Below are positions 5,236 to 61,600 of a DNA stretch of 61,746 nucleotides, in pieces. Both the position numbers and the translations under genes were made by a program. Below the pieces are notes generated by a model. The model saw only the letters and a program-made list of their open reading frames with translations. It was not told the origin of the DNA and did no database searches. Numbering within the stretch: the first letter of the stretch is position 1; every line of letters starts with the position of its first letter. The stretch is from NCBI GenBank assembly GCA_964482845.1, contig CAYZZE010000001.1:1-61746 (forward strand), written 5' to 3'. Origin of the DNA: an uncultured Candidatus Cloacimonadota bacterium (GTDB taxonomy: Bacteria > Cloacimonadota > Cloacimonadia > Cloacimonadales > Cloacimonadaceae).

Positions 5236-8200
5236 ATGCGTTCAACAAACATCATCGTGCTGCCTGCTGTCATTGCAATCATGCTATTGACATTGATCAC
5301 GGGCAGCGCGCATGCCTTTATCGGTGATCAAGTTAGAACCCACTCGGTCACTCCCAACCAATTGATCTTCAAGACCTCCCGGGTCATTCAGCCAACCCGC
5401 AGCCGTACTGGACTGACCCAGTTTGATAGTTTCCTTGACCAATTGGGAGCCGATAATATCCGTCTCATTCGAGGGATGCATCTGGAGCAGTATTATCAGG
5501 TGGACCTGGTTCAAGAACCGGACTGGGTTGTCGTACGCAGCGGCGGATACAGATTTGAAGGCATCGAATACATCCAACCCATTGGCCTTAGCACCTTCCA
5601 CAGCATGACCCCCAACGACCCGCTTTTCCCATTGCAGCAATTGCATTTATCCTCTATACCCGAGGCATGGAACTATACTACCGGCAGCCCTTTGGTGATC
5701 GTGGGAGTAGTGGATTCGGGCATCCTGCGCGAGCATCCTGATATTACGGCAAACCTGTATACCAATCCCAACGAGACCCCGGATAATGGTATCGATGATG
5801 ACGGCAATGGCTATATTGACGATTGGTGCGGCTGGGACTTTGTGGATTCGCCGGAAATGGCGGATGTGGCTTTGGGCGACTTTATCGTACAGGACAATGA
5901 CGTCACGGACGAAAACTTCCACGGCACCCACGTCTCCGGAATCATCGGAGCGGCCGGAAACAACAATATCGGCATTAGCGGCGTGAACTGGAATGCAAGG
6001 ATAATGCCGCTTAGGGCAGGTTTTAAAACTACCCAGGGCGCTGGTTATCTCCAGGATGACGATGCTGCCGCCGCGATCATTTATGCTGCGGACAACGGAT
6101 GTCACGTGATCAACATGAGTTGGGGCGATCCCAATTACTCACCCATCATTGCAGACGCATGTGAATACGCTTACAACAAGGGAGTCGTCTTGGTCGGCTC
6201 AGCCGGAAACGACCCCGGTCCAAATCTCAGTTATCCTGCCAAGTTATCCACCGTGATCTCAGTCGGTGCGGTCAACCGCTATAAGCACTTGGCAGGTTTT
6301 TCCAGTTATGGGATCGATCTGGATCTGGTTGCGCCCGGAGAACAGATCTGGAGCGCCTACAAACTGGAACCGACGGAACTCTACAGCGAAATGTCAGGCA
6401 CTTCGATGTCCGCTCCTTATGTGACTGGCAGCGTAGCGCTTTTGAATGGACTAATGCCGGGACTGACGCCAGACGAGGTGAGGGCGCGACTTTTGACCTC
6501 GACTGATGATCTCGGAGCGCCTGGCTTTGACATTCACTTTGGCCATGGGCTTCTGAATACCAAAAAACTACTGGAAAATCTTGATCCTCCTATGGTTGCG
6601 ATGGATTATCCCTTCGATAACATGGGCATTTCCTCTGACTTTGATATACTGGGCACGGTTCGGTGTGCTGATTTCTTCCGCTATTCAGTGATGTACACCA
6701 ACAAAACCACTCCTTCCATCCTTGACTGGAAGGATGTGCAACGCCATTCAAACGAACCGACTTATTTCCACCAACCTGTCTCTAATGGACTTATCGCCCG
6801 ATTTAATGTCCCCGCTCACTTCAAGGACGGCGTCTATCTGCTCCGGATCCAATATGAAAATGTGAATGGCAAACGCTACAATTACTACCGTTCAGTTCAC
6901 TACAATACGACCAATCCCACCATGATCATCGAATCCGTGCAGGGTTCCCGCCGTTATGAAGGACAGAACCTGCGTTATTATGTCTCAGCCAAATTCAGCG
7001 AGCCCGTGCATGCGCGGCTCAAGGCGATTGCTGCCGACAATTCCGAATTTCTGGTTTACAGCGTTACCAGGGACAGCATTCAAGTATGGATGCTGCCGCC
7101 GGAGATGCCGCAAGGGCAGGTATCGGTGCAGATCGAAGCATACAACAACGCCAATCTCGAATACTCGTCACCCATCATTAATAACGTGATCAATATCCAG
7201 TATGAGATCGTATCTACTTATGGCTGGACTCACAATGTTATTGGCAGTCCCCGCGTCCCGCTAAACAAGATGTATGACTTTGACAATAACGGACTTATAG
7301 AGTATGTCTCAATGGATTTACCCGTCGCCGGTTATGGACAGGTCTATGTCTATGAACCCGCAACCGATGGACATATACTGAAGCATACATTCAATGATGC
7401 CTTCTGGCCTTTGGATCTGGGCAATACCAATGATCAGGGAAAAGAACTACTTATCCTCAAAGCCGATACTGCCAGCATCCTGGAGACGCCTGCGGGCGGC
7501 AGTTATCCTTCGCAGAATATCTGGAACACCACCGGTATTTCAGGTGGGATTTTTGCCAATTATACCGGCCCTGTAGCGGATGAGGTCTTATTGGTAAAGA
7601 ATCTTCCCGCCGAACGGGTGATCCAGGCTTTCACCCGGGCAGGAGGTACATTCACAGCCCGCAATACACTCCGAAACACGACACCCACCAATCTCCGCAA
7701 CACCTTTGTCCCATCGATCATTTGCCGTAATTTTGATAATGACGCTTTTCCTGATATCCTTGCTGCCGATACCGACGGAGACGTCATGGTCTTTGAGATC
7801 GTTAATCACAACAACCATTCCATGACTTGGACAAAGCGGCAGCCCATAGGCAATTTATATTACCTTACCGCAGGCGATTATACCGGAAATGGACGGCAGG
7901 AATTCTTCGTCGGTGGCTACTACCGCGACATTCTCAATCCCAACCTCAATTTCTGGTTTTTTGAGGGAATCCGCAGCACATCAAATAACGCCTACGTTTC
8001 AATGGGCTCCATCATGATCAATAACTACATGTCCCAAAACGCCGTCCATTCCTTTGATCTGGATAGCGATGGCAAGGACGAGATCATCCTGGCGCTGACG
8101 CCCAACCTTTACGTTCTCAAATACATCAACAACCAGTTTGTGCCGGTGTGGCATGGATCCAGTTCCAATACATACCAGATCGCCGCCTGGCGCGATGCCG

Positions 8201-9453
8201 CTCACCGGAGTCATTTTTTGACCAATTACAAGACGGAGACCGATTCGCTATATGCCACGGAATGGACTCAGATGGATGCCTACACGGCTCCGCCTACCCC
8301 GGCAAACCTGCTGGTCAAACCCTTGAACGAATATTCTGCCCGACTTACCTGGATCGGAAACAATTCTGACCACTACAATATCTACCGCAAGGATGAAGAT
8401 GGTAGTATCATTAGTTTTACCGGCATTACAAGCAACGCTTTTATCGATACCACCCTATCTGCCGGTAGGACCTATCAATATCGATTGACGGCAGTCAATT
8501 CCATGTATCAGCCACCGGAAAGCCAGCCAACGCTATGGCATAGCGTTATCCCCAATCCGCGTCCACACATCACCGAGATCACAATGATCAGCAGCAATGA
8601 AATGAGGATCCTTTTTGACCAGCAGATGGCATCCGCCAATCTCAATCCCGGATACTATCACGTAAGCCACGGCTTGGGAAATCCGCACTCGGTCAATGCC
8701 ACCATGATGCAATTTGGGATGCAACTCAGATTCCGCAACCAGTTTCCGGAGACGACCGAACCATTCGTTCTCACCACGCAAAATATCGTCGGCGCCACAG
8801 GTGTCGAACCGGAGGTCTGGCAGTATCAATTTTACTATGTCCAGGATTGGCTCCCACCGGAGGTAGTGGAAACCATCGTTAACGCCGACAAAAGGACGGT
8901 GGATATCGTCATGAGCGAGGATATCGCCGCCGGTAGCGCACTTGCCCTGTCTAATTACGTTTTCACCCCTCCGCACAATGATCCGGACAATCGCATCATG
9001 GCCATCAGTGTGCATGACAATATCATCCAGCTAAGATTGAGAAACGCCATCCGGTATTCCAACCAGTTATACTACGTCACCATCTCCAATGTGACCGATC
9101 TGGCGGGCAATGTGATTTCACGCCAAAACAATCTTGCCACTTTTGCCCTGCCACCCGTTACCAATCTCGATGCCGTGATCCTCTATCCCAATCCGGTGCG
9201 CAGTGCCGATAATGCCTGGATCGGTATTTTGAACCTCCCGCAGCATAAGAAGGGCAGCATCGCCATCTACAACGCCTCCGGCGATATTGTCTGGAAAAGT
9301 AATATCGCACCGATCACGCCAGTTACCCACAATCCCGTTTTCCGCTGGAACCTCAGAAATATGAATGATCGCAGGGTATCCTCCGGGATCTATTTTTATA
9401 TTCTGGAGATGGGCGGAGAGTATAAAAGAGGAAAGTTCGCGGTCATCAATTGA
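5236..9453 (+). CDS. Subtilisin-like S8 serine peptidase, 1405 aa, with FG-GAP-like repeats, an FN3-like domain and a T9SS-type C-terminal sorting domain
   Basis: Catalytic triad motifs VGVVDSGI (Asp), HGTHVSGIIGA (His) and SGTSMSAPYVTGS (Ser). FN3-like segment PPTPANLLVKPLNEYSARLTW...YQYRLTAVN. C-terminus LYPNPVRS...SSGIYFYILEMGGEYKRGKFAVIN. Confidence 0.88.
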   Translation: MRSTNIIVLPAVIAIMLLTLITGSAHAFIGDQVRTHSVTPNQLIFKTSRVIQPTRSRTGLTQFDSFLDQLGADNIRLIRGMHLEQYYQVDLVQEPDWVVVRSGGYRFEGIEYIQPIGLSTFHSMTPNDPLFPLQQLHLSSIPEAWNYTTGSPLVIVGVVDSGILREHPDITANLYTNPNETPDNGIDDDGNGYIDDWCGWDFVDSPEMADVALGDFIVQDNDVTDENFHGTHVSGIIGAAGNNNIGISGVNWNARIMPLRAGFKTTQGAGYLQDDDAAAAIIYAADNGCHVINMSWGDPNYSPIIADACEYAYNKGVVLVGSAGNDPGPNLSYPAKLSTVISVGAVNRYKHLAGFSSYGIDLDLVAPGEQIWSAYKLEPTELYSEMSGTSMSAPYVTGSVALLNGLMPGLTPDEVRARLLTSTDDLGAPGFDIHFGHGLLNTKKLLENLDPPMVAMDYPFDNMGISSDFDILGTVRCADFFRYSVMYTNKTTPSILDWKDVQRHSNEPTYFHQPVSNGLIARFNVPAHFKDGVYLLRIQYENVNGKRYNYYRSVHYNTTNPTMIIESVQGSRRYEGQNLRYYVSAKFSEPVHARLKAIAADNSEFLVYSVTRDSIQVWMLPPEMPQGQVSVQIEAYNNANLEYSSPIINNVINIQYEIVSTYGWTHNVIGSPRVPLNKMYDFDNNGLIEYVSMDLPVAGYGQVYVYEPATDGHILKHTFNDAFWPLDLGNTNDQGKELLILKADTASILETPAGGSYPSQNIWNTTGISGGIFANYTGPVADEVLLVKNLPAERVIQAFTRAGGTFTARNTLRNTTPTNLRNTFVPSIICRNFDNDAFPDILAADTDGDVMVFEIVNHNNHSMTWTKRQPIGNLYYLTAGDYTGNGRQEFFVGGYYRDILNPNLNFWFFEGIRSTSNNAYVSMGSIMINNYMSQNAVHSFDLDSDGKDEIILALTPNLYVLKYINNQFVPVWHGSSSNTYQIAAWRDAAHRSHFLTNYKTETDSLYATEWTQMDAYTAPPTPANLLVKPLNEYSARLTWIGNNSDHYNIYRKDEDGSIISFTGITSNAFIDTTLSAGRTYQYRLTAVNSMYQPPESQPTLWHSVIPNPRPHITEITMISSNEMRILFDQQMASANLNPGYYHVSHGLGNPHSVNATMMQFGMQLRFRNQFPETTEPFVLTTQNIVGATGVEPEVWQYQFYYVQDWLPPEVVETIVNADKRTVDIVMSEDIAAGSALALSNYVFTPPHNDPDNRIMAISVHDNIIQLRLRNAIRYSNQLYYVTISNVTDLAGNVISRQNNLATFALPPVTNLDAVILYPNPVRSADNAWIGILNLPQHKKGSIAIYNASGDIVWKSNIAPITPVTHNPVFRWNLRNMNDRRVSSGIYFYILEMGGEYKRGKFAVIN

Positions 9454-10475: not shown

Positions 10476-10738
10476 CCTCCTTGCTTGATAACCTTAGTAT
10501 AACCTTACGACCGTAAGGTTATACTAAGGTTATGGAGCAGGAAGAACCCAGGCGGAAACACAGTCAGCTGGAATCTGGTCCTTCTCGAGACGGGTGAACA
10601 ATTCACAGCGATTGACATTACTGCTATATGCAAACCATCTGCCAGACATAATCCGATGTCATAAGGGGCTGCGCTGGAATGGAGAGACAGTATGTTATTT
10701 TCACGTTCCCGATATTTTGAGATTCCAGTATGTTAAAC
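10476..10738 (-). repeat. Composite intergenic repeat, copy 1 (inverted orientation, diverged)
   Basis: Hairpin core at 10488-10533 (ataaccttagtataaccttac gacc gtaaggttatactaaggttat) with one 11-nt unit per arm. The downstream 200 nt align by eye to the reverse complement of copy 2 (e.g. aaaccatctgccagacataatcc vs aaactatctgacaggcataatcc, and ctgcgctggaa shared). Confidence 0.8.
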
Positions 10739-12645: not shown

Positions 12646-13254
12646 ATGAACAAATTATACATCCTCATTCTAACGTTGCTGATAATGTTGCCCCTACACG
12701 CAGCAGTGGGTTGCGATTTGAACGACCCAAACAGAGACGTAAAAAGACTTTTCCCGGCTTCCACCGGATTCAAAACCTATTATCGCTCCATCACCAAAGA
12801 CGGCGGTAAAGACCTATTGGAGAAAATTGAAAAGCGCCTTGGCGACAAATTTACGGGGCTGTTCGAAACCATCGATGTCCCCTATACTCTTTACGAGATA
12901 TACCGTGACAATCGAATAATCGGTTACATCCACGGTGTAAATCAAAAAGGCCGTTATGGAGGATTACAGTTATTTTTGGCTTTTGATACCGGAGGAACTA
13001 TCCTCAGCATGTATATACAGAGGATCAGCGGAAAAAATTCCCGCCGTTTCCGGGACGGCGCTTTTACAGATCAGTTTAATGGACTAAACCTCAGAGATTT
13101 TGATTCCTGGAATATCAAAACCCGCTCCGGCACCGGAAAGTTGGCAGGCATCAAAAATCCCGCACCCACTGATGAGGATTTTTATAACATCATGAGGGGA
13201 TTGAAAAAGAACCTGGTCTTAATGAATCACTTTGGTTATTGGAACCCCAGATAG
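12646..13254 (+). CDS. Periplasmic lipoprotein-like protein with a degenerate FMN_bind-like fold (tentative)
   Basis: Signal peptide with Cys (LHAAVGC). IGYIHGVNQKGRYGGLQLFLAFDTGGTILSMYIQ resembles the FMN-binding domain core, but the usual flavinylated Thr/Ser motif was not seen. Confidence 0.3.
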   Translation: MNKLYILILTLLIMLPLHAAVGCDLNDPNRDVKRLFPASTGFKTYYRSITKDGGKDLLEKIEKRLGDKFTGLFETIDVPYTLYEIYRDNRIIGYIHGVNQKGRYGGLQLFLAFDTGGTILSMYIQRISGKNSRRFRDGAFTDQFNGLNLRDFDSWNIKTRSGTGKLAGIKNPAPTDEDFYNIMRGLKKNLVLMNHFGYWNPR

Positions 13255-15174: not shown

Positions 15175-15482
15175 GTTGCACATACGGGAATCACCATATT
15201 TTGAGACCGTGAAAAACAAAATCGTCGCTCCTTCCAGCGCAGTCAGTATTAGCTAAGGATTATGCCTGTCAGATAGTTTGGATACTCGTTGAGTCAACCG
15301 CTCCGAGTTGTTTAACGGTCTCAAGAAGGTTTAGATTCAAGCGGAATAGTGCTTTCTCCTGCATTCTCCCTGCTTCATAACCTTAGTATAACCTTACGGT
15401 CGTAAGGTTATACTAAGGTTATACTAAGGTTATCAAGCAAGGAGGATAGTTAAGTCAACTCTCTGATTTATTCAACGGTCTT
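15175..15482 (+). repeat. Composite intergenic repeat, copy 2 (reference copy): modules M1-M2-hairpin-M3
   Basis: M1 is gttgcacatacgggaatcacc... (15175-15260). M2 is ggattatgcctgtcagatagtttgg...ctcctgcattc (15258-15364). The hairpin spans 15365-15446 (left arm has one aaccttagtat unit, right arm has two atactaaggtt units, loop ggtc). M3 is tagttaagtcaactctctgatttattcaacggtc (15447-15482). It lies between convergent genes. Confidence 0.85.
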
Positions 15483-15554
15483 TTCCGATGTCACCTTCTC
15501 GCTTGGGGTTTCAGTTTTGCCCATTTGATCTCGTTGTGCAGGCTTTTGCGCCCC

Positions 15555-18023
15555 TTACATACGGATCAGGGCAAATTTTCCGCGGCGGGTAGTGGAGGAA
15601 GATCCGGAGATCAAGTAGTAATAAACGCCGGAGGAGGCATCTTTGCCGGCTTTGTTTTTGCCGTTCCAATGGAAACGTCCGAATTCATTGATATCGAGTT
15701 TGATTACGAGGTCGCCGGTGCTGTTGTAGATATGACATGTCCTGACATCGGCGGGGAAGTGTGCGTCGGGAAAGTTATTGATACGGATGAATCCGTCACG
15801 GGATGGCGAGAAGGGATTGGGAAAGGCGATCACTGTTTGAATGAATTGGGCGGTTTTGATCGAGCGTCCGATCTCCAAACGATTTACGCCATCGGGAGTT
15901 CCGATGATCAAGTATCCGCCCACAGGGTCATATTCGAGGGCGGTCACGTAGTTTGAGAGCAAGGGTGACACGCTCATATAATAATTGGCAAATCGTTCGC
16001 TAACAGGATCATACATGGAAAAGCCATTGCCTACGCTTCCGATCCAAAGACGGTTGAAAGGATCGAGCTGGAGGGCGGTGGGAGAGGTGCGCACCGATCC
16101 AAAGAGGCGCTCCTCGTCCACGTAATAAAGGATGTCGTTTTCCCAGTCAGCGTTGCCCCATCGGCGTCTTTTAATATCGGTATCGTATTTATACCAATGG
16201 GTTTCATTCCACATAAAGAGTCCGGTGCTGGCCGCGATCCAGTGTTGCCTTTCACCCCATCGGGTTGTAAGGGTCGCCACTTCATAGACAATGCAATTGT
16301 TGAGATCGGAGGGTGGTGGTATGAGCCAGTGTTCGCCACCGGTCACCGGTAGCGAATTGTGGTTCCAGATGACCAGTCCGCGGTCGTTATTGGTGCCGAT
16401 AAAGTACTTATTACCGCTGTGATAGAGATAAACAACGGCTTGCAGGGGGCTATTGGGGATGGTGAAGGTAGTCAGGAGATTGTAGTTGTTATCAAAGACA
16501 TTGACGCCGTCGGTGTAACTTGCGACCAAGATACGGTTATTTTGATCGAGAGCAATATCGCCGATAGTATTGCCAAGCAATCTGGGCGATCCGGGGATAA
16601 CGGACAACCATTCCAAGTTCTCGGGATCCCAGTTCTGGACGCCTTGGCGGGAAAAACGCTGCCAGGTATCGGTTTCATCGTCGTAAACGGTGATCCCAAG
16701 CATCCAGTTTGAGGGGCTTAAGGGTGAAACGTCCCAAGGTCCGAACCACTTCTTGTTGTTGCCGTCCACCGCGACGCAGAGAACATTATCGGCAGTAAGC
16801 GGACTATTCTCCACGTTGAAGGTCTGCCATTGATCGCCATCAAGCACGGAAAACCCCAATGTGCCCTTGCGGACGATGCCAGGTCCCTGATTGCCGCTAC
16901 CGAACCAGATCTTGTGATTTTTGTCCACGGCGATGTCACTTATCTTGGGGAAGCCGACGCAATTGGAACGGTAATTTTGCCATTGGTCGCCTGACTTTCG
17001 GTAAACCCCACCGCCCCATGATGCGAGGTAAAGTTCCACGCCATAATTCACGATACGGCTGATGACGGATGAATGTAAGCCATTGGTGTTGGATGTAATG
17101 TGCTGGATCATGCCATCGGGCTGGATCACCGATAGGAGTTGGTCAGTATTGCGCTGGAAAATGAGATTGTTTTCGTTCCATACTCCATAAGCGGCCCAGA
17201 TATATCCGGCGGTGTCCATCCCCACCGCCGACAGCGGATGATTGATCAATCCCTGGGTTGCGGAGAATAAAGTCCATCCCTGTTCCGCCGGATCGAGGGA
17301 ACGTTTGAGCACCGTAGCACCGAAGGCAAGACAGAGATCGGTCTCATTGGCGGCGAGCATCACAGGATTTCCATCGATCACCGGAGAGTTTAAACTGTTC
17401 CACTTTCGCCAGGAACTGTCAAAATCCAGGGAGTCCACATGGACATAACTAACGCTGATATCTGTAGCAAGATAAAGGTAACCCTGAGGTGAGAGGAGCA
17501 TATCCACGATATTGTTTGAGGATAGTCCGCCGGCGGTATTTTGGACGGTGTAGCGTTGGAGCAACAAAGGAAAAGACACCCCCGGCAGATAGTAGAAAAG
17601 AGACAGACCCTGATCGGTGGCGACGAAGGTTGAGGAGCCGCTTTCGATGATGCGGTTGACCCGATTGGAGGGGAGTCCATTACTGGTATTGATGATCTGC
17701 TTTGATCCATTTCCGATAATGGTTATGCCCTTATCGTATGATCCCAGCCAGATATTTTCCGATGAGGATACATAGGTTACGGTGCGGACGTCATTGGAGA
17801 CAATGCCGTCACTGGTCGTCCACCGTGTCTGGGACAAATCCTGCGTCCAATTCAGGCTTCCGGCATCATTGAGCTGAACCAATCCGCCCCAAGTGCTGAA
17901 ATAGACATCATTATCACTCACCATGAGGTCAAAGACATAGGTGGTATTCGTATCGGTCAACCAAGTGGTGGAAATTAACGGGACACACATCAGGAGTGTG
18001 AGCATTACATAGATACGGATCAT
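15555..18023 (-). CDS. Secreted beta-propeller (two-component-regulator-propeller-like repeats) protein with a T9SS-type C-terminal sorting domain
   Basis: Signal peptide MIRIYVMLTLLMCVPLIS. Many W.G(T/S)..G(L/V) propeller-like repeats. C-terminus AFPNPFSP...SSGVYYYLISG...RGKFALIRM. Its ATG overlaps the upstream stop (ATGA). Confidence 0.7.
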   Translation of the reverse strand: MIRIYVMLTLLMCVPLISTTWLTDTNTTYVFDLMVSDNDVYFSTWGGLVQLNDAGSLNWTQDLSQTRWTTSDGIVSNDVRTVTYVSSSENIWLGSYDKGITIIGNGSKQIINTSNGLPSNRVNRIIESGSSTFVATDQGLSLFYYLPGVSFPLLLQRYTVQNTAGGLSSNNIVDMLLSPQGYLYLATDISVSYVHVDSLDFDSSWRKWNSLNSPVIDGNPVMLAANETDLCLAFGATVLKRSLDPAEQGWTLFSATQGLINHPLSAVGMDTAGYIWAAYGVWNENNLIFQRNTDQLLSVIQPDGMIQHITSNTNGLHSSVISRIVNYGVELYLASWGGGVYRKSGDQWQNYRSNCVGFPKISDIAVDKNHKIWFGSGNQGPGIVRKGTLGFSVLDGDQWQTFNVENSPLTADNVLCVAVDGNNKKWFGPWDVSPLSPSNWMLGITVYDDETDTWQRFSRQGVQNWDPENLEWLSVIPGSPRLLGNTIGDIALDQNNRILVASYTDGVNVFDNNYNLLTTFTIPNSPLQAVVYLYHSGNKYFIGTNNDRGLVIWNHNSLPVTGGEHWLIPPPSDLNNCIVYEVATLTTRWGERQHWIAASTGLFMWNETHWYKYDTDIKRRRWGNADWENDILYYVDEERLFGSVRTSPTALQLDPFNRLWIGSVGNGFSMYDPVSERFANYYMSVSPLLSNYVTALEYDPVGGYLIIGTPDGVNRLEIGRSIKTAQFIQTVIAFPNPFSPSRDGFIRINNFPDAHFPADVRTCHIYNSTGDLVIKLDINEFGRFHWNGKNKAGKDASSGVYYYLISGSSSTTRRGKFALIRM

Positions 18024-21959: not shown

Positions 21960-22189
21960 CCCTTGTTTGACTATAGTCCTCCTTGCTTGATAACCTTAGT
22001 ATAACCTTAGTATAACCTTACGACCGTAAGGTTATACTAAGGTTATGAAGCAGGGAGAATGCAGGAGAAAGCGCTATTCCGCTTGAATCTAAACCTTCTT
22101 AAGGCAGTTGCATGATTCAGAGCGGTTGACTCCATGGTCATATATACGCCTTCTGTCAGGCAAGACCCGGTGTCTTAACATTGCTGCCG
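21960..22189 (-). repeat. Composite intergenic repeat, copy 3 (inverted): M3-hairpin-M2 part
   Basis: Hairpin at 21977-22058 (two aaccttagtat units on the left, one on the right, loop gacc), which is the reverse complement of the copy 2 hairpin. The following gaatgcaggagaaagcgctattccgcttgaatctaaaccttctt is the reverse complement of the M2 3' part. Confidence 0.85.
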
Positions 22190-22432
22190 GATGTTAGGCG
22201 GTAACTTCCATCACCGTCCGGAACGCCGCCAACGATCAACCAGCAAGGGTATCCGGACTTTGGGAGGACTTTAGTCCGGGAGAAATCCCCTCTCGCCGGT
22301 CAGGCCTCATTCTTTTAATACGCTGGCATATGTCTCTCGTTCGGACAGAAGTCCTCTCAACGTCTAAAAACCCAGTAGGGTTGTATGTACTCTCACGATC
22401 CGAAACGGTGGTTGAAACCACCGCCTAACATC
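22190..22432. repeat. 243-bp segment bounded by a 12-bp perfect inverted repeat (gatgttaggcgg / ccgcctaacatc), nested in repeat copy 3; candidate MITE or structured RNA
   Basis: Termini at 22190-22201 and 22421-22432. Several internal hairpins (ggtggt-ttca-accacc, ccggact...agtccgg, ggac-ttct-gtcc on the minus strand). Only the 60-nt end (22376-22432) recurs, at 52580-52640. Confidence 0.45.
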
Positions 22433-29576: not shown

Positions 29577-29722
29577 AGATGATGGCAAAGAAATCCAGCC
29601 GACTAGCCACCCTTATTTACCGAATCCTTTTTGTGGCTTATGCTATCATTCTCGGAGTGATCATGTTCTCGGATAAGATAGCCAGTTATGCCCCTTACCT
29701 GATACGTCTGGCAGGATCATAA
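29573..29722 (+). CDS. Small membrane protein (49 aa), hypothetical
   Basis: MKMMAKKSSRLATLIYRILFVAYAIILGVIMF has one TM helix. ATGA overlap with the upstream GT2 gene. Could be real or an artefact. Confidence 0.35.
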   Translation: MKMMAKKSSRLATLIYRILFVAYAIILGVIMFSDKIASYAPYLIRLAGS

Positions 29723-29723
29723 G

Positions 29724-34662: not shown

Positions 34663-35122
34663 TCCACGAATTACACGCATTGGCACAAATTGTCATAGAG
34701 TGTTATGAATAGCCCGGAACTACTTTACAAAGAAGAGTGTTACAATATAATCGGTGCATGTATGACAGTGCATCGAGAAATGGGTAATGGTTTCCTTGAA
34801 TCAGTTTATCAAGAAGCCCTGGCAATCGAACTGGAAAATCGTAGGATACCCTATAAGAGGGAGAAAGTGATCAATGTATCGTACAGGGGCATTGATTTAA
34901 AGTCAACTTTCAAAGCTGACTTTGTTTGTTATGAGGAAGTAATTGTCGAAGTCAAAGCACTGAGTTTACTAAGCAATGATCATACTTCTCAAGTAATTAA
35001 CTATCTAAAAGCAACCGGATTAAGAGTCGGTTTGCTGGTCAACTTTGGCACATCAAGTTTACAACACCATCGCTATGTGCTCTAAACCTTTAGTAATCTG
35101 TGTAATTAGTGTAATTCGTGGA
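34663..35122 (+). mobile_element. GxxExxY cassette A: mini-gene boxed by inverted arms of gtgtaatt-type 9-nt units
   Basis: Perfect 14-bp inverted repeat tccacgaattacac (34663-34676) / gtgtaattcgtgga (35109-35122). The arms extend imperfectly to about 32 nt (34663-34694 and 35092-35122), with 9-nt phasing tagtaatct|gtgtaatta|gtgtaattc|gtgg. Mobility is not demonstrated. Confidence 0.45.
34705..35085 (+). CDS. GxxExxY protein (PD-(D/E)XK nuclease fold, PDDEXK_3-like)
   Basis: 126 aa. GFLESVY matches GxxExxY. ADFVCYEEVIVEVKA gives D...E.K. The C-terminus QVINYLKATGLRVGLLVNFG is typical of the family as I recall it (TIGR04256). Confidence 0.8.
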   Translation: MNSPELLYKEECYNIIGACMTVHREMGNGFLESVYQEALAIELENRRIPYKREKVINVSYRGIDLKSTFKADFVCYEEVIVEVKALSLLSNDHTSQVINYLKATGLRVGLLVNFGTSSLQHHRYVL

Positions 35123-43982: not shown

Positions 43983-44066
43983 TGGTTGTATCATGATTAC
44001 TTCACATCAGAATCCATCAAAATGATAAAGTAGCAAAAATCCTTATAAGTGACCAGTTTTCCTGCG

Positions 44067-44149
44067 TCCTCCCTGCTTGATAACCTTAGTATAACCTTAC
44101 GGTCGTAAGGTTATACTAAGGTTATACTAAGGTTATCAAGCAAGGAGGA
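44067..44149 (+). repeat. Stand-alone copy (4) of the 82-nt hairpin, inside a co-directional operon
   Basis: tcctccctgcttgat-aaccttagtat-aaccttac-ggtc-gtaaggtt-atactaaggtt-atactaaggtt-atcaagcaaggagga. The outer stem is fully complementary here (cttgat/atcaag). Only about 25 nt of M2-like sequence lie upstream, and there is no M1 or M3. Confidence 0.85.
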
Positions 44150-44189
44150 TAAGGGTAGGTAAAGGGAAAAAGGAACAAAACGAGATAGC

Positions 44190-49697: not shown

Positions 49698-50711
49698 ATG
49701 TTTAACAACAAGATTATAATGATCACCGGCGGCACCGGCTCTTTTGGCAATACCGTGCTCAATCGTTTTCTGGATACCGGAGTAAAAGAGATCCGGATAT
49801 TCAGCCGGGACGAGAAAAAACAGGATGATATGCGCAAAGATTACCGGAATGACAAGATCAAGTTCCATTTGGGTGACGTCCGTGATTATGACAGCGTGTT
49901 CAATGCCATGCAAGGGGTGGACTATGCGTTTCATGCCGCAGCCCTGAAGCAAGTGCCATCCTGTGAGTTCTTTCCGGTGCAGGCGGTCAAGACCAATATC
50001 CTCGGTGCCGAGAATGTGATCAGGGCTGCCATTGCCAATCAAATCAGCAAAGTAATCGTTCTTTCCACCGATAAGGCGGTCTATCCGATCAATGCCATGG
50101 GTATGTCCAAAGCGCTGATGGAAAAGGTAATGGTGGCTTATTCCCGGCAGCAGCCAGATAATGGGACTGTCCTCTGTGGGACGCGTTATGGCAACGTAAT
50201 GGCATCACGTGGTTCGGTCATACCGCTTTTTATCGAACAGATCAAGGCAGGTAAGCCCATTACTATCACCGATCCCGACATGACGAGGTATCTGATGTCG
50301 CTGGAAGAAGCGGTGGAATTGGTTGTGTATGCCTATCAGAATGGAGTGCAGGGTGACATCTTTGTCCAAAAATCGCCGGCATCCACGATCCAAGACCTGG
50401 CACAGGCACTTATCGAACTATTTCATGCCAATACTGAAATCCGCATCATTGGTACCCGGCATGGAGAAAAGAAACACGAGACGCTGATCAACCGGGAAGA
50501 AATGGCAAAGGCAGTTGACCTCCCGGGTTACTTTCGGATTCCCGCTGATACACGTGACCTGAACTATGACAAATACTTCAGCAATGGTGAAGCTAAGGTC
50601 ACTGAAATCGAGGAATACACATCAGAAAATACGTACCGCCTCAGCATCCCGGAGATTAAGGAGAAACTGCTATCTCTTCAGTATGTGAGAGACGAACTGG
50701 GTTCCAACTGA
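49698..50711 (+). CDS. fnlA: UDP-GlcNAc 4,6-dehydratase/5-epimerase (FnlA/CapE/WbjB)
   Basis: Near-collinear identity with the remembered S. aureus CapE sequence: ITGGTGSFGN, EIRIFSRDEKKQDDMR, HAAALKQVPSCEFFP, CGTRYGNVMASRGSVIPLFI, ITDPDMTRYLMSLEEAVELV, GTRHGEKKHETL. Confidence 0.93.
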   Translation: MFNNKIIMITGGTGSFGNTVLNRFLDTGVKEIRIFSRDEKKQDDMRKDYRNDKIKFHLGDVRDYDSVFNAMQGVDYAFHAAALKQVPSCEFFPVQAVKTNILGAENVIRAAIANQISKVIVLSTDKAVYPINAMGMSKALMEKVMVAYSRQQPDNGTVLCGTRYGNVMASRGSVIPLFIEQIKAGKPITITDPDMTRYLMSLEEAVELVVYAYQNGVQGDIFVQKSPASTIQDLAQALIELFHANTEIRIIGTRHGEKKHETLINREEMAKAVDLPGYFRIPADTRDLNYDKYFSNGEAKVTEIEEYTSENTYRLSIPEIKEKLLSLQYVRDELGSN

Positions 50712-50725
50712 GAATATTTATCTGA

Positions 50726-51157
50726 CACCACCGAGGACACTGAGAACACCGAAAATGATTTTCGAAAAGGACTTGAGCGATAAGATAATTGGTTGTGCCA
50801 TTGAAGTTCATAAGCAACTTGGATCCGTTTACATGGAGAAACTTTACGAAAAAGCCATGCTGATAGAGCTTTCAGAAGCAGGACTCAAAACGAGAAACCA
50901 AGTTCCAATTCACGTGGTATTCAAGAATCATGTTATCGGGGACTACATACTTGATATTGTTGTCGAGGATAAAGTAATTCTTGAACTCAAAGCGTGTTCA
51001 AAAATAATCCCTGTGCATGAGGCTCAATTGATTCAATATCTACATACGTCAAAGTACAAAATAGGTTACATTATCAATTTTGGCAGTAACTATAAACTAG
51101 AGTTTGTTAGGAAAGTACTATGACGGTTTTCTCGGTGCTTTCGGTGTTCTCGGTGGT
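50726..51157 (+). mobile_element. GxxExxY cassette B: mini-gene boxed by inverted arms of caccgag-type 9-nt units
   Basis: The left arm at 50727-50754 reads accaccgag|gacactgag|aacaccgaa|a. The right arm at 51127-51157 has the reverse complement accaccgag|aacaccgaa|agcaccgag|aaaa. The left arm abuts the ATG, and the right arm ends 10 nt before the fnlB ATG. Mobility is not demonstrated. Confidence 0.45.
50755..51123 (+). CDS. GxxExxY-family protein (PD-(D/E)XK fold), variant first motif (VYMEKLY)
   Basis: 122 aa. LDIVVEDKVILELKA gives D...E.K. QLIQYLHTSKYKIGYIINFG tail. The Gly of GxxExxY is displaced by two residues. Confidence 0.8.
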   Translation: MIFEKDLSDKIIGCAIEVHKQLGSVYMEKLYEKAMLIELSEAGLKTRNQVPIHVVFKNHVIGDYILDIVVEDKVILELKACSKIIPVHEAQLIQYLHTSKYKIGYIINFGSNYKLEFVRKVL

Positions 51158-51166
51158 TAAAACAAC

Positions 51167-52402
51167 ATGAAAAAGAGAATTGGTATTACCGGACAGGCAG
51201 GATTTATCGGCACTCACCTGTACAACACCCTCGGCTTGTCCGGAGATCGTTTTGCAAGAATTTCCTTTGAAGACGGTTTCTTCTATTCGGAGGGATTACT
51301 GGATGATTTTGTTCGTAAGTGCGATGTGATCGTGCATCTGGCAGCCGTCAACCGTCACGCTGAGCCAGAAGTTCTCTACAAGACAAATATCGAATTGGTT
51401 CGCAAGCTGATAGCATCAATGGATAGGAATAAGGTTTCACCGTATGTCATATTGAGTTCTTCATTGCAAGAGGAAAGGGACAACCTCTATGGCAGGTCGA
51501 AAAGGGAAGGCAGAGAACTATTTAATCAGTGGGCGGATAGAACGGGTGCAAGTTTCAGCGGATTGATCATCCCCAATGTCTTCGGTCCCTTTGGGGTGCC
51601 GTATTACAATTCCGTGATATCGACCTTCTCTCACCAGATAGTGATTGGAGAAGAACCAAAAATAGAAGTGGATGCCGAACTGAAGTTGATCTATGTGGGT
51701 GATCTGGTGCAACGGATCATTTGTTTAATTGATAGTTACACCGATGTGACGGATAAAACGGATCAATACAGATTTATGACCGAAAGGACAACCACCGGGG
51801 ACACCGAAAACACCGAAAGTAATTCTCAATTCTCAATTATCAATTATCAATTGAACAAGCCGGAACGGCTTATCCAGGTTGAACATCAAGCGGTTTGTAA
51901 GGTGTCGGATTTATTGGCTAAGTTACTTGGATTTCATGGCGAGTATGTAGAAATGGGTGTTTTTCCTGATCTCAGAGATTATTTTGACGTATGTCTGTTC
52001 AATACTTTCCGTTCCTATCTGCCAGTGTCATTTTTCCCCCGACCCTTCAAAGTGAATAGCGATGATCGCGGCGTATTTGTGGAGGTGATGAAATACAGAT
52101 CCGGTGGGCAATCGTCCTATTCGACGACCAAACCGGGCATTACGAGGGGCAACCACTTCCATATCCGAAAAGTTGAACGATTTGCCGTGATCAAGGGCAA
52201 GGCATCCATCAAACTGAGAAAATTGGGGACAGATCAGATCATCGACTATCAGATCGACGGATCACAACCAGCGTATGTGGATATACCAGTGTGGTTTACA
52301 CACAACATCACGAACATGGGTGATGAAGAACTGGTGACACTATTTTGGATAAATGAGTTCTATGAACCACGTGACCCCGATACTTACTATGAAGAAATTT
52401 GA
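51167..52402 (+). CDS. fnlB: Bifunctional SDR + cupin enzyme of L-FucNAc synthesis (FnlB/CapF/WbjC) with an extra linker of about 37 aa
   Basis: N-terminal ITGQAGFIGTHL, VHLAAVNR, YGRSKREGE. C-terminal cupin DDRGVFVEVMK...KPGITRGNHFH...VDIPVWFTHNITNMGDEELVTLFW parallels S. aureus CapF. 411 aa against about 369 aa. Confidence 0.88.
   Translation: MKKRIGITGQAGFIGTHLYNTLGLSGDRFARISFEDGFFYSEGLLDDFVRKCDVIVHLAAVNRHAEPEVLYKTNIELVRKLIASMDRNKVSPYVILSSSLQEERDNLYGRSKREGRELFNQWADRTGASFSGLIIPNVFGPFGVPYYNSVISTFSHQIVIGEEPKIEVDAELKLIYVGDLVQRIICLIDSYTDVTDKTDQYRFMTERTTTGDTENTESNSQFSIINYQLNKPERLIQVEHQAVCKVSDLLAKLLGFHGEYVEMGVFPDLRDYFDVCLFNTFRSYLPVSFFPRPFKVNSDDRGVFVEVMKYRSGGQSSYSTTKPGITRGNHFHIRKVERFAVIKGKASIKLRKLGTDQIIDYQIDGSQPAYVDIPVWFTHNITNMGDEELVTLFWINEFYEPRDPDTYYEEI
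51791..51848 (+). repeat. Solo B-type arm plus heptamer tandem array, in frame inside fnlB/capF
   Basis: accaccggg|gacaccgaa|aacaccgaa|ag (51791-51819) is a paralog of the cassette B left arm. It is followed by aattctc aattctc aattatc aattatc (51821-51848). The tract translates as TTGDTENTESNSQFSIINYQL. Confidence 0.75.
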
Positions 52403-53015
52403 TTACCACCGAGAACACCGAGTTCACCGTTGCTATCTTCAGGATGCAATGTTGAAGACAAAAAGGTGTGTTATGCGACCCAAAGTTATCAAATAGAGAC
52501 CATTGCACATGTTGGGGTCACCGGATATTGAGATTATGAAATCGTGAGAAAGCAATATCATCTGCCTCCCTGCGTCATTGGATGTTAGGCGGTGGTTTCA
52601 ACCACCGTTTCGGATCGTGAGAGTACATACAACCCTACTGCGGATCTTCTGGGGATTATGCCTGTCAGATAGTTTGGCTACTCGTTGAGTCAACCGCTCT
52701 GAGTTATCTAACGGTCTCAAGAAGGTTTGGATTTAAGCGGAATAGTGCTTTCTCCTGCATTCTCCCTGCTTCATAACCTTAGTATAACCTTACGGTCGTA
52801 AGGTTATACTAAGGTTATACTAAGGTTATCAAGCAGGGAGGATAGCTCTAAGTCAACTCTCTGAGTTGTTCAACGGTCTTAATTAGTTTGTCAGATAAGG
52901 ATTTGTAAGTTTAACAGTTAGCTATCAGTTATGAAATCGAACGCCGACATAGCAATCCGCTACCAGTCGTATTTATGTTTGATGTTTCTCGGAACTTTCG
53001 GTGTTCTTGGTGGTA
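52403..53015 (+). repeat. B-type inverted arm pair with no GxxExxY gene between the arms
   Basis: The left arm ttaccaccgag|aacaccgag|ttcaccg (52403-52429) starts directly after the fnlB stop. The right arm at 52985-53015 has the reverse complement taccaccaag|aacaccgaa|agttccgag|aaa. The interior is occupied by composite repeat copy 5. Confidence 0.7.
52495..52883 (+). repeat. Composite intergenic repeat, copy 5 (M1, 60-nt end of the nested element, M2, hairpin, M3)
   Basis: M1 is agagaccattgcacatgttggggtcaccgg... (52495-52578). gatgttaggcggtggtttcaaccacc...ccctactg spans 52580-52640. M2 spans 52653-52760. The hairpin spans 52761-52842. M3 spans 52843-52883. Confidence 0.85.
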
Positions 53016-53035: not shown

Positions 53036-54151
53036 ATGTTAAAAGTAATGACTGTTGTCGGTACGAGACCCGAGATCATCCGGCTCTCAAGAGTGATGCC
53101 ACTTTTGGATCGGTACACCCGCCATATCCTGGTGCATACGGGACAGAACTACGATTACGAACTCAATCAGATATTCTTTGAAGATCTGGAATTACGTCAG
53201 CCTGACTATGTCTTGAACGTAAATACAACATCCTTGGGGCATGTTTTGGGGGAGACACTTATCAAGATCGAAGATGTCGTGGATAAAGAAAAACCGGATG
53301 CAATGCTGATCTTGGGCGATACCAATGCCAGCATCGCCGCTATCATGGCAAAACGCCGGCACATCCCGATCTATCACATGGAAGCCGGTAACCGCAGTTT
53401 TGACGAAAATGTGCCGGAGGAGATCAATCGCCGAATGATTGATCATATCGCCGATTTTAACCTCGTCTATACGGAAAACTCCCGGCGACATCTAATATCT
53501 GAGGGCTTACCGCACCGGCGCATTTACCTGACCGGTTCTCCGATGAATGAGGTCATTTCCTATTATCGACACAAGATTGAAAGATCCAACGTCTTGGAGG
53601 CATTGCAACTTAAGACAAAACAGTTCTTTCTGGTATCTGTACATCGGGAAGAGAATGTTGACAATCCGGAAAACCTGCATCAGATCATTGATGTCCTGAA
53701 CCAGTTGATACAGAAGTATAACCTTCCGGTGATAGTCAGCACACACCCAAGAACCCGAAAGCGACTTGAGTCACTCAATTCGATCAACCCTGACTCGCAA
53801 ATCAAATTCCTCAAGCCCTTCGGGTTCTGTGACTATAACTTCCTGCAGATGAATGCTCTATGTGTGATATCGGATAGTGGGACGATCAGTGAGGAGAGTT
53901 CAATCCTCCGTTTCCCAGCGATCACCATCAGAAATTCCATGGAGCGTCCGGAAGCAATTGATGCCGGGACTATCATTCTCAGCGGTTTCAACACCGATAT
54001 AGTGCTGGATTCTGTTGCTTTAGCAATGGATGAGCAAGCCAGGTGTGATAGAATCTGCCCCGAATATCAGGTTAGCAATACTTCCCACAGGGTTCTGAAA
54101 CTGATCCTTGGAACTGCGAAACTCCACAAGCAGTGGAGCGGGCTTAATTAA
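53036..54151 (+). CDS. fnlC: UDP-N-acetylglucosamine (UDP-L-talosamine-type) 2-epimerase, non-hydrolysing (FnlC/CapG/WbjD)
   Basis: MLKVMTVVGTRPEIIRLS, GDTNASIAA, HMEAGNRSFDENVPEEINRRMIDHI, SDSGTISEE. Third gene of the FnlABC set. Confidence 0.88.
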   Translation: MLKVMTVVGTRPEIIRLSRVMPLLDRYTRHILVHTGQNYDYELNQIFFEDLELRQPDYVLNVNTTSLGHVLGETLIKIEDVVDKEKPDAMLILGDTNASIAAIMAKRRHIPIYHMEAGNRSFDENVPEEINRRMIDHIADFNLVYTENSRRHLISEGLPHRRIYLTGSPMNEVISYYRHKIERSNVLEALQLKTKQFFLVSVHREENVDNPENLHQIIDVLNQLIQKYNLPVIVSTHPRTRKRLESLNSINPDSQIKFLKPFGFCDYNFLQMNALCVISDSGTISEESSILRFPAITIRNSMERPEAIDAGTIILSGFNTDIVLDSVALAMDEQARCDRICPEYQVSNTSHRVLKLILGTAKLHKQWSGLN

Positions 54152-59554: not shown

Positions 59555-60072
59555 GTTCTCGCAGATTGTCGCAGATGATTTATAGAACGCAGATAGCGCA
59601 GATTCCATAAGGATGAGAGGTTAAAGTGACTGAGAATGAGATTGGCTATAAGATAAGAGGTGCCTGCTTTTCGGTTTATAATACACTGGGACCGGGATTA
59701 CTTGAAAGCACTTATGAGAAAGCACTTTTTTTGGAACTTATTTCAGGATGCAATGCCAAGACACAAGTCGCATTGAACCTTACCTATAAAGAAAAGCAAA
59801 TTGATAGTGCATATCGAATAGATTTGTTGGTAGAAGATAAAGTGATTGTTGAGATCAAATCCATCGAGTCACTAATGCCAATCCACCATAAACAATTGAT
59901 CACTTATTTAAGGCTATCGGGACTGAAACTTGGTTATCTGGTTAACTTCAATACAACCGAACTTGATAAGAACATACATAGATATGTTAACCAACTCTAA
60001 TCCTAGTAGTTACTCCATTCATTCCTTGCGCCGATCTGCGTCTTTTCAAGATCTGCGTAAATCTGCGAGAAC
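59555..60072 (+). mobile_element. GxxExxY cassette C: mini-gene boxed by inverted arms of about 48 nt built from cgcagat units
   Basis: The left arm spans 59555-59604 (gttctcgcagattgtcgcagatgatttatagaacgcagatagcgcagatt, four cgcagat units). The right arm at 60026-60072 has the reverse complement gttctcgcagatttacgcagatcttgaaaagacgcagatcggcgcaa. The left arm starts 1 nt after the upstream stop. Mobility is not demonstrated. Confidence 0.45.
59626..60000 (+). CDS. GxxExxY protein (PD-(D/E)XK fold)
   Basis: 124 aa. GTG start with SD gagagg. GLLESTY matches GxxExxY. IDLLVEDKVIVEIKS gives D...E.K. QLITYLRLSGLKLGYLVNFN tail. Confidence 0.8.
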   Translation: MTENEIGYKIRGACFSVYNTLGPGLLESTYEKALFLELISGCNAKTQVALNLTYKEKQIDSAYRIDLLVEDKVIVEIKSIESLMPIHHKQLITYLRLSGLKLGYLVNFNTTELDKNIHRYVNQL

Positions 60073-61290: not shown

Positions 61291-61600
61291 GTTGCACATA
61301 CGGGAATCACCAAATATCGAGAACGTGAAAAAACAATAGCGTCTTTCCTTCCAGCGCAGTCAGTAATAACTAAGGATTATGCCTGTCAGATAATTTGGAT
61401 ACTCGTTGAATCCCCCGCTCTGAGTTATTCAACGGTCTCAAGAAGGTTAGATTCAAGCGGAATAGTGCTCTCTCCTGAACGCTCCCTGCTTCATAACCTT
61501 AGTATAACCTTACGGTCGTAAGGTTATACTAAGGTTATACTAAGGTTATCAAGCAAGGAGGATAGTTGTAAGTCAACTCTCTGAATTAGTCGACGACCGT
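61291..61600 (+). repeat. Composite intergenic repeat, copy 6 (M1-M2-hairpin-M3)
   Basis: gttgcacatacgggaatcaccaaatatcgagaacgtgaaaaaac... is collinear with copy 2. The hairpin spans 61481-61562. M3 is tagttgtaagtcaactctctgaattagtcgacg. Confidence 0.85.

Follow-up and report, generated by a model that had tools for sequence, protein, structure and literature searches.

The intervening sequences (IVSs) of 23S rRNA, for instance those of Coxiella and Leptospira, carry a small open reading frame (ORF) in the loop of a long stem with inverted flanks. In Coxiella burnetii, the loop contains an S23p ORF that is decaying. The 5′ arm comprises two to three tandem GACAGAT heptamers in strain-dependent number, and RNase III was found to cleave the stem at the first of these repeats (PMC4990558). 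Older proposals cited in that work regard IVSs as transposition remnants or as mobile elements with the ORF serving mobility (PMC4990558). Another type of small gene between inverted repeats is the REP-associated tyrosine transposase (RAYT) of repetitive extragenic palindromic (REP) sequences and their hairpin-forming doublets (REPINs). Here, we describe an element with similarities to both systems. It was found in a 61,746-nt stretch of DNA (the window) from an uncultured Candidatus Cloacimonadota bacterium (contig CAYZZE010000001.1), whose closest homologues carry the names Candidatus Cloacimonetes or Cloacimonadota. A gene of the GxxExxY family (PDDEXK_3), predicted to encode a minimal nuclease of the PD-(D/E)XK type, is boxed by inverted arms of tandem 9-nt units in the spacer between two genes of a sugar operon. 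In the best reading, the cassette is a full-length representative of a class of small, mobile hairpin-repeat elements that spans phyla.

All coordinates are positions in the window, with features on the + strand unless marked otherwise; labels such as L009 denote fetched homologous loci. The gene, cargo 1, occupies positions 50755–51123, codes for 122 amino acids and fills the 455-nt spacer between a fnlA-like and a fnlB-like gene. The left arm (50727–50755) consists of the units ACCACCGAG, GACACTGAG and AACACCGAA followed by A. It starts 16 nt past the fnlA stop codon, and its inner end abuts the ATG of the cargo. The right arm (51127–51157) is the reverse complement of the left-arm units and was recognised by Tandem Repeats Finder with period 9 at 51130–51155. 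Its outer tip is GTGGTTAA, and it ends 9 nt 5′ of the fnlB ATG. The inverted repeat (50727–50755/51129–51157) covers 29 nt with 83% complementarity. This confirmed the ORF, the gap and the inverted 9-nt-unit arms of the preliminary description, which was also right about armed GxxExxY genes with different unit types at 34705 and 59626. Arms begin 0–27 nt past the upstream stop and end 6–20 nt before the downstream ATG. The left arm begins inside the TGA stop codon of fnlA in L009–L011 and L015, with an in-frame TGA every 9 nt as a result. Right arms of the window-1 type (51127–51157; L006–L012) have the outer tip GGTGGTGA located 4–14 nt 5′ of the downstream ATG and look like an extended Shine-Dalgarno sequence.

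Cargo 1 is a clear family member. Its E-values were 2.6e-37 for TIGR04256 (GxxExxY; 127.7 bits, cutoff 35) and 1.6e-39 for PF13366 (PDDEXK_3; 135.3 bits, cutoff 22). The ORFs at 34705 and 59626 also scored above the curated cutoffs of PDDEXK_3/TIGR04256. The PD-(D/E)XK signature is intact, as initially noticed: D67, E77-x-K79 and Q91-xxx-Y95 are invariant or nearly so in an alignment of 72 sequences. The name-giving motif reads VxxExxY, with V25 replacing the glycine. E28 and Y31 are kept, the catalytic residues are intact, and close orthologues of cargo 1, such as P0028, retain the glycine. An AlphaFold2 model (predicted local distance difference test score, 96.3) has an alpha-beta core. Its best fold matches were Cas4 SSO0001, lambda exonuclease and AdnAB, with TM-scores (normalised to query length) of at most 0.61; weaker matches included tRNA-splicing endonucleases and the homing endonuclease I-Bth0305I (probability 0.60). 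The model predicts that cargo 1 is a RecB/Cas4-like core with a QxxxY motif. A PDB sequence search with cargo 1 revealed no homologue, and PADLOC and PHROGs searches gave only weak Cas4/endonuclease echoes. The combination of D/ExK and QxxxY motifs is typical of RecB-family DNA nucleases and suggests DNA rather than RNA as the substrate of GxxExxY proteins. A Pfam profile scan detected no transposase domain in the window cassettes.

The boxed geometry is common among GxxExxY genes. For comparison, two sets were fetched: 80 metagenomic loci, and 80 loci from species-representative genomes that span at least 12 phyla. The flank inverted-repeat score was the best local alignment of the 120 nt upstream against the reverse complement of the 120 nt downstream. 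In the species-representative set, 59% of 74 GxxExxY genes reached a score of at least 28, versus 2.7% of 263 other genes at the same loci (Mann-Whitney p = 4e-21) and 3.3% of cross-locus pairings. A separate scan of small ORFs found a score of at least 30 for 51% of 135 GxxExxY genes and 3.6% of 281 other small ORFs. The metagenomic loci showed the same behaviour. The census of flanking arms proposed in the preliminary description was thus strongly positive. The high-scoring other ORFs were mostly neighbours of cassettes, a true RAYT gene flanked by REPs or PF05635 genes. Boxed GxxExxY genes are not restricted to sugar loci, and cultured organisms with RefSeq annotation have them too. In Bacteroides finegoldii, a gene of this kind, encoding WP_032839887, lies between radA and the gene of an FAD-dependent protein, with arms of CACCACAGAG, GACGCAGAG and GACACGGAG and their mirror image; the initial assignment of all copies to sugar operons was too narrow. 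A plasmid collection, used as a stand-in for a census of whole replicons, contained six single-copy GxxExxY matches, including the 24.8-kb Bacteroides record. On the Fusobacteria plasmid pZRK30-1 (L174, 2840–3440), the gene is flanked by direct copies of about 22 nt (CAGATTTAATCCGTGTACCTAT) with right-arm polarity; the inverted geometry is therefore common, not universal. ORFs without Pfam match are boxed by GxxExxY-type arms at L105:3472–3966 (CACGGAT/CACTGAT) and L135:3416–3856 (TTAACCACGAAT), which suggests replacement of the cargo or non-autonomous boxes.

The arms of about 140 cassettes have a common design: a CAC-N-GA core, a period of 8–10 nt and a tip consensus. CAC.GA was about 10-fold enriched upstream of GxxExxY genes and its complement was enriched downstream. 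Successive AC.GA cores were spaced by 8, 9 and 10 nt in 35, 90 and 58 cases, with almost none in between. A T-rich tract lies before the outermost unit, and the tip has the sequence TT-A-R-C-C-A-C...GTGGYTAA. In a text search of the literature, the tip motif matched only miR-27 primers. The CAC.GA array was on the sense strand upstream in 35 loci and had the swapped polarity in 10; the swapped cases inspected were genes between two complete hairpins. The order of units is mirrored between the arms more closely than their shared composition would produce: 25 cassettes paired better than with permuted units and 7 worse (p = 1e-4). The preliminary description had taken each cassette to have private arms. 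This was wrong, with core and tip shared by about 140 cassettes and the cassette-1 unit recurring in a second box and in fnlB.

Gene and arms evolve together. Each protein clade has its own units: CACCGAG or CACTGAG in the window-1 clade, CGCAGAT in the window-3 clade and CACAGAG, CACGGAG, ACAGGAT or GCGGAT in other clades. Protein identity correlated with the k-mer overlap of arms (Mantel test, 0 of 500 permutations reached the observed value). The CGCAGAT-armed clade was present in three contexts, the gap between Bac_transf and Epimerase_2 genes (window, L169, L170), the fnlB-fnlC gap (L009–L011) and the fnlA-fnlB gap (L166, L168). The cassettes in the fnlA-fnlB gap of L166 and the fnlB-fnlC gap of L011 share 86% nucleotide identity over 550 nt, including arms and untranslated regions; the flanking genes have a comparable identity of 83–90%. 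L166 has an additional partial copy in its fnlB-fnlC gap. The partial copy is closer to the first copy of L166 (92.9%) than to the L011 copy (88.7%), which indicates probable copying between two gaps within one lineage. The segment L166:4173–4720 has the order left arm, unrelated sequence, right arm with the host junction tatgatactATG, 3′ half of a GxxExxY gene and second right arm. It resembles a tandem duplication of part of the cassette, with the start codon of the host gene included.

The fnlA-fnlB junction has been occupied by several lineages. An intact gene of the window-1 type is present in the window and L006–L015, a gene of the window-3 type in L166 and L168. The closest relatives, L003 and L004 (FnlA 98%, FnlB 86% identical), have a C-terminal GxxExxY remnant of 38–46 amino acids with eroded arms. 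The remnant matched only the cassette-2 query (47% over 38 amino acids) and represents a third GxxExxY lineage. The preliminary description had asked for junctions without cassette. None was present among the relatives fetched; all had intact, truncated or remnant cassettes. The ratio of nonsynonymous to synonymous substitutions (dN/dS) was 0.06–0.10, measured on gene pairs of the cassette-3 type. Intact GxxExxY genes appear to be functional and under purifying selection. The CACCGAG unit is retained between window-1 orthologues even though their synonymous sites have reached saturation (pS about 0.84); the arm unit is therefore constrained or continually homogenised. The number of units varies from 3 to about 11 among cassette orthologues, which shows that arrays expand and contract. 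The hairpin-repeat box with its nested gene is an evolving unit, found in different gaps and decaying in place.

Boxes also occur without ORF. Loci with GxxExxY genes were scanned for pairs of a left and a subsequent right array, and the distance between the arrays was recorded. Gene-bearing boxes with a distance of 300–600 nt were found in 82 cases and bare hairpins with less than 90 nt in 32 cases; 35 cases were intermediate (90–300 nt). Bare hairpins near GxxExxY genes had the same kind of tips and units. In some loci they occurred in series beside the gene, five in L074 and three each in L114 and L022. The B. finegoldii record (L176, NZ_OY725952.1, 24.8 kb) contained eight matches to the 13-mer CACCACAGAGGAC with up to two mismatches, versus 0.27 expected. 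These form four inverted pairs in four different spacers, and one pair encloses the GxxExxY gene. The other three pairs have mutually unrelated loops of about 40–155 nt, one with a terminator-like hairpin. Repeat sites are located at 5400–5585, 8745–8895, 12838–12905, 15185–15652 and 22228–22308 of this record; a fifth hairpin uses another unit, CACAGATT/CACGGATT. The ORF-less copies lie between convergent or unrelated genes, including housekeeping spacers. The second box and the annotated 5′ end of a 'zinc ribbon' coding sequence overlap, so the start of this coding sequence may be mis-called.

The window itself contains an ORF-less box. The cassette-1 unit ACCGAGAACACCGA had nine matches with up to two mismatches in the window, versus 0.31 expected. 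Outside the cassette-1 arms, they form an inverted pair (52404–52430/52985–53015) and a solo in-frame array in fnlB (51794–51820). The left arm of this box 2, ACCACCGAGAACACCGAGTTCACCG (52404–52430), starts 2 nt past the fnlB stop, and the right arm, TTCTCGGAACTTTCGGTGTTCTTGGTGGTA (52985–53015), ends 20 nt 5′ of the fnlC/wecB-like ATG at 53036. The interior of 554 nt (52431–52984) has no ORF of more than 47 amino acids, and hmmsearch of its six-frame translation detected no GxxExxY remnant (E > 5). It contains one copy of an unrelated, dispersed hairpin element of about 220 nt (52653–52880). The orthologous gaps in L009–L012 and L166 have a GxxExxY gene that is intact, frameshifted or truncated. 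With this second inverted pair, the window has at least four boxes and not three as first counted.

The two other gene-bearing boxes of the window differ in units. In cassette 2, cargo 2 (34705–35085, 126 amino acids, PDDEXK_3 profile match) lies between genes of a Polysacc_synt flippase-like protein and a DegT aminotransferase. The left arm (34663–34692) begins with TCCACGAATTACAC, and the right arm (35095–35122) is AATCTGTGTAATTAGTGTAATTCGTGGA, a tandem repeat with 9-nt units. In cassette 3, the left arm (59555–59604) starts 1 nt past the stop of the Bac_transf gene with GTTCTCGCAGAT, has CGCAGAT four times and is kept in the orthologous cassettes of L169 and L170. Cargo 3 (59626–60000, 124 amino acids) was assigned by profile match and orthologues and has a dN/dS of 0.09. 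The right arm (60031–60072) has ATCTGCG three times and ends with GCGAGAAC, 15 nt 5′ of the Epimerase_2 ATG. The inverted repeats were placed at 34657–34681/35104–35128 for cassette 2 and 59555–59576/60051–60072 for cassette 3. The window cassettes had flank scores of 34–42, versus a median of 16 for other genes, and the repeat units were found in the window at cassette sites alone. With 31–38% amino acid identity, the three cargos are old paralogues.

The RNA of the arms may pair. In predicted minimum-free-energy folds, the arms close the structure in all three window cassettes. Duplex energies from arm to arm were −48 to −66 kcal/mol, versus −28.8 ± 6.9 kcal/mol with a minimum of −43 for 33 other operon genes. 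A scan for sigma-70-type promoters and intrinsic terminators revealed no excess over shuffled sequences and is uninformative for the promoter type of Cloacimonadota. Rfam detected no rRNA or other family in the window, and only sub-threshold miRNA/snoRNA hairpin noise in the loci with bare hairpins. By analogy, the precedent for an RNA stem is real: the Coxiella IVS with tandem-heptamer arms cut by RNase III. Four genes of PF05635 (23S_rRNA_IVP, bAvd-like) are located in operon spacers of the related loci and boxed by inverted arms of tandem units (L168:5730–6134, L059:4489–4851, L115:4215–4715(−) and L037:625–1038). Their units have 7–9 nt, mostly 7–8 nt: GTTACGA, GGATTAR, GATKCAA and TTTAACGA. 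Two further PF05635 genes have arrays on one side. PF05635 boxes share operons with GxxExxY cassettes.

In comparison with 23S IVSs, the cassettes share the small ORF in the loop of a long stem with inverted flanks, arms of short tandem repeats in variable copy number, and an ORF that tends to decay, with horizontal transfer and a mobile origin suspected in the literature. They differ in the host, which is a protein-coding operon and not helix 25 or 45 of 23S rRNA, in the cargo, which is a PF13366 nuclease under strong purifying selection and not S23p/PF05635, and in the units, which are mostly of 8–10 nt with a CAC-N-GA core. IVSs are excised by RNase III without religation; pairing in the cassettes is a prediction of RNA folding. 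The similarity to REP/REPIN-RAYT systems concerns genomic behaviour. In both, inverted copies of a short repeat lie on either side of the gene, with one gene per repeat type in the records examined. Cargo-less hairpins of the same repeat occur in spacers of the same genome, the repeat sequence co-varies with the enzyme clade, and the enzyme is under purifying selection with long-term, mostly vertical inheritance. Unlike RAYT, an HUH/Y1 (IS200/IS605-like) transposase, the cassette enzyme has a PD-(D/E)XK fold. The arms are arrays of direct units with a TTARCCAC tip, whereas REPs are palindromes of 20–40 nt with a GTAG/CGTC tag. A genuine RAYT flanked by REPs, met as a control in L106, looks different from the cassettes.

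Two further systems were compared. Free-standing homing endonuclease genes (phage seg/mob) also are small nuclease genes between conserved co-directional genes, and they also invade and then decay, with different lineages at one junction. Inverted arms of tandem units are absent from these genes, as are armed derivatives without ORF. In miniature inverted-repeat transposable elements (MITEs) and at the ends of Tn7, Mu and hAT, as in the cassettes, the terminal inverted repeats come with a number of short subterminal repeats in inverted orientation, and ORF-less derivatives exist. The cassettes are without a recognisable transposase or target-site duplication, and the interiors of ORF-less boxes are mutually unrelated. 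Overall, the cassette is best described as resembling IVSs in RNA geometry and REP/RAYT systems in genomic behaviour. It belongs to neither because it has no rRNA host, no S23p ORF and no Y1 transposase. The new part seems to be an IVS-type architecture in protein-coding operons with a nuclease as cargo. The literature covered contained no description of it, no functional study of GxxExxY/PDDEXK_3 or PF05635 and no description of the arms.

With a probability of about one half, the feature is a mobile hairpin-repeat element with REP/MITE-like ends, an IVS-like RNA stem and a minimal RecB/Cas4-like nuclease as cargo. The unit of inheritance and movement would be the whole box: a left array of 8–10-nt units with the core CAC-N-GA and the tip TTARCCAC, the cargo and the mirror-image right array. 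The box may land in the few spare nucleotides between co-transcribed genes, with transcription presumably by read-through of the operon. It would then persist under purifying selection or decay in place to ORF-less boxes and bare hairpins. The nuclease would recognise or cut cognate unit arrays and drive or maintain the spread of arms, in the way RAYT does with REP/REPINs. In the transcript, the arms would pair to a stem of about 25–45 bp, similar to the RNase III-processed stem of ORF-bearing 23S IVSs. Paired arms would allow a tight operon to tolerate the insertion and would hide the start site of the cargo in the stem. Taken jointly, action of the nuclease on the arms and stem pairing in the transcript have about an even chance. 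Speculatively, the 8–10-nt units may arise when a site that contains the core repeatedly undergoes staggered cleavage and fill-in.

Several observations weigh against the mobile hairpin-repeat element. A nuclease of 122 amino acids cannot perform strand transfer alone, and direct repeats outside the arms or a target-site duplication were absent at the three window cassettes. Likely intragenomic copying was seen in one case only, L166. About 40% of GxxExxY genes have no arms, and a minority lies between complete hairpins or direct repeats. Neighbours are co-directional with the GxxExxY gene in 93% of cases upstream and 92% downstream, versus a background of 83%; a co-orientation of 92% is not expected of a symmetric transposon without selection. 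Shared arms with unrelated loops in Bacteroides are unlike classic MITE copies. The link between protein and arms is a prediction, and nuclease activity may not be needed for the architecture because the non-nuclease PF05635 cargo is boxed alike. Among the arm mismatches, G.U (162) was not in excess of A.C (158), with 490 transversions. The pattern fits conserved cores with free spacer positions. Without G.U excess, the sequences give no sign of selection for a stem in the sense RNA, so the stem part of the proposal rests on analogy and predicted folding. The mobile-cassette part of the nuclease hypothesis in the preliminary description gained indirect support from the different gaps, the ORF-less copies with the same arms and the co-variation of clade and unit.

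A wider proposal is tentative. GxxExxY proteins could be the cognate nucleases of unrecognised, cross-phylum REP-like hairpin repeats and a PD-(D/E)XK counterpart of RAYT, with staggered cuts and repair generating and spreading the 8–10-nt arrays. The ORF-bearing rRNA IVSs, the 'orphan' S23p/Avd-like genes and the GxxExxY genes dispersed in operons would then be the loop cargo of one kind of mobile hairpin, which essential transcripts tolerate since RNase III removes the arms or they fold out.

Alternatively, the box may be a purely RNA-level device: the arms form an mRNA stem that is cut by RNase III to excise or insulate the insert in the manner of rRNA IVSs, and the gene is a passive passenger whose product does not recognise the arms. 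This is consistent with the tandem heptamer arms and mapped RNase III sites of the Coxiella IVS (PMC4990558), the same geometry around PF05635 cargo, the arms paired in predicted folds with strong duplex energies and the mirrored unit order. The cassettes are also co-directional with the operon, with no sigma-70-type promoter or terminator signal above chance. A stem, however, needs neither tandem units with a cross-phylum conserved core nor identical arms at several loci of one genome, and its unit type has no need to track the protein clade. Units are also present solo and in frame inside fnlB. Together with the balance of G.U and A.C and many transversions at spacer positions, this makes a purely RNA-level device unlikely. 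Of the RNA stem suggested in the preliminary description, the Coxiella precedent and the PF05635 boxes stand, and a G.U bias is lacking.

A selfish gene of the homing endonuclease type would cut a cassette-free fnlA|fnlB junction in sister or incoming DNA and be copied in by repair that starts from the conserved genes on either side, with the arms being secondary, for example as scars or by slippage. This explanation fits the position of a nuclease gene among strongly conserved neighbours of like direction, the occupation of one junction by different lineages with a full decay series, and the weak fold match to the PD-(D/E)XK homing endonuclease I-Bth0305I. Neutral scars, however, would not survive the saturation of synonymous sites as the arms do. 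Armed hairpins without ORF lie scattered across unrelated housekeeping spacers, the architecture is the same with non-nuclease PF05635 cargo, and the cassette-free junction was not recovered among the relatives fetched. We consider a homing gene quite improbable.

A host-beneficial regulatory module is very unlikely. The box would adjust mRNA half-life or the coupling of translation in glycan operons, and the protein would have a function in the cell, which is consistent with the long retention of the cassette under purifying selection in fnl operons. Close relatives, however, have repeatedly lost the cassette or let it decay, ORF-less copies lie between convergent or unrelated genes, and boxes occur outside sugar operons. 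The arms do bridge the upstream stop (0–27 nt) and the downstream ATG (6–20 nt), and the right-arm tip resembles an extended Shine-Dalgarno sequence, but other unit types have no such tip. An inverton gating read-through, also suggested in the preliminary description, would fit the inverted repeats around a segment of about 370 bp in a surface-glycan locus but is hardly credible: neighbours are 92–93% co-directional, the scanned immediate neighbours of the window cassettes are sugar-pathway enzymes and not recombinases, orthologous cassettes in at least nine relatives all have the same orientation, and the arm arrays vary by whole units, which is atypical of recombinase core sites. An integron cassette with attC site was dropped as a candidate: the inverted sequences lie on both sides of the ORF and do not form a compact attC at its 3′ end, and inspection by eye revealed no GTTRRRY cores.

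The host genes belong to a tightly packed + strand cluster (23335–61521) with gaps of at most 70 nt or overlaps outside the gaps with boxes or hairpin elements. The wider gaps are small-gene boxes or the hairpin element, with one further gap of 147 nt (29577–29723). Upstream of cassette 1 is the gene of a FnlA-like UDP-GlcNAc 4,6-dehydratase/5-epimerase (49698–50711; TIGR04130, E 2.4e-161, 536 bits, equivalog cutoff 730). Downstream follows a WbcJ/FnlB-like reductase with a repeat-built linker (51167–52402; NF047837, E 9.9e-68 in two stretches). Homologous genes flank the cassette as first described, but both are named '-like' because they score under the FnlA and WbcJ equivalog cutoffs. The third gene of the set (53036–54151) encodes a wecB-type 2-epimerase (fnlC/wecB-like). 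A pathway of the N-acetyl-L-fucosamine type is plausible but not proven for the host genes, since the flanking genes fall below the equivalog cutoffs.

The linker of the FnlB-like protein contains an in-frame stack of repeats (51740–51852): four copies of ACGGATNNN, three of CACCGANNN at 51794–51820, which are of the left-arm type, and 4.6 of AATTMTC. A search for a GxxExxY remnant within the linker found none. The homologues vary in length from 372 to 434 amino acids and have 0 to about 16 in-frame 9-nt units coding for DTE/NTE/TES repeats. In most homologues inspected, the linker units are of the type that makes up the arms of the adjacent cassette of window-1 type in that genome, with CACTGAG in L009–L011 and CACCGA in the window and L006. 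In L166 and L168, cassette arms of CGCAGAT stand beside linkers of this kind. Linker arrays have only the polarity that codes for hydrophilic residues.

The dispersed element of about 90–230 nt has a near-perfect hairpin core with arms of 11-nt tandem units (TAAGGTTATAC, 2.8 copies). Six copies are present in 62 kb, all intergenic (10477–10654(−), 15257–15482, 21977–22132(−), 44057–44151, 52653–52880 and 61374–61595). In the fnlB-fnlC gap of L003, the element is at another position and in reverse orientation. This difference suggests independent mobility, and the element looks MITE-like and built on the principle of tandem-unit arms.

GxxExxY/PDDEXK_3 and S23p/PF05635 are large families of small proteins whose function is not known, annotated in thousands of genomes. 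Both have hitherto been read as functionally tied to their operon, e.g. in cas loci. A common status as loop cargo of hairpin repeats would reinterpret such guilt-by-association calls for both families and give two families of 'function unknown' a common, testable lifestyle. It would tie the 30-year-old puzzle of rRNA IVSs to a far broader class of elements. The elements are also a source to consider for repeat linkers within reading frames and for differences in the size of intergenic gaps in surface-glycan loci.

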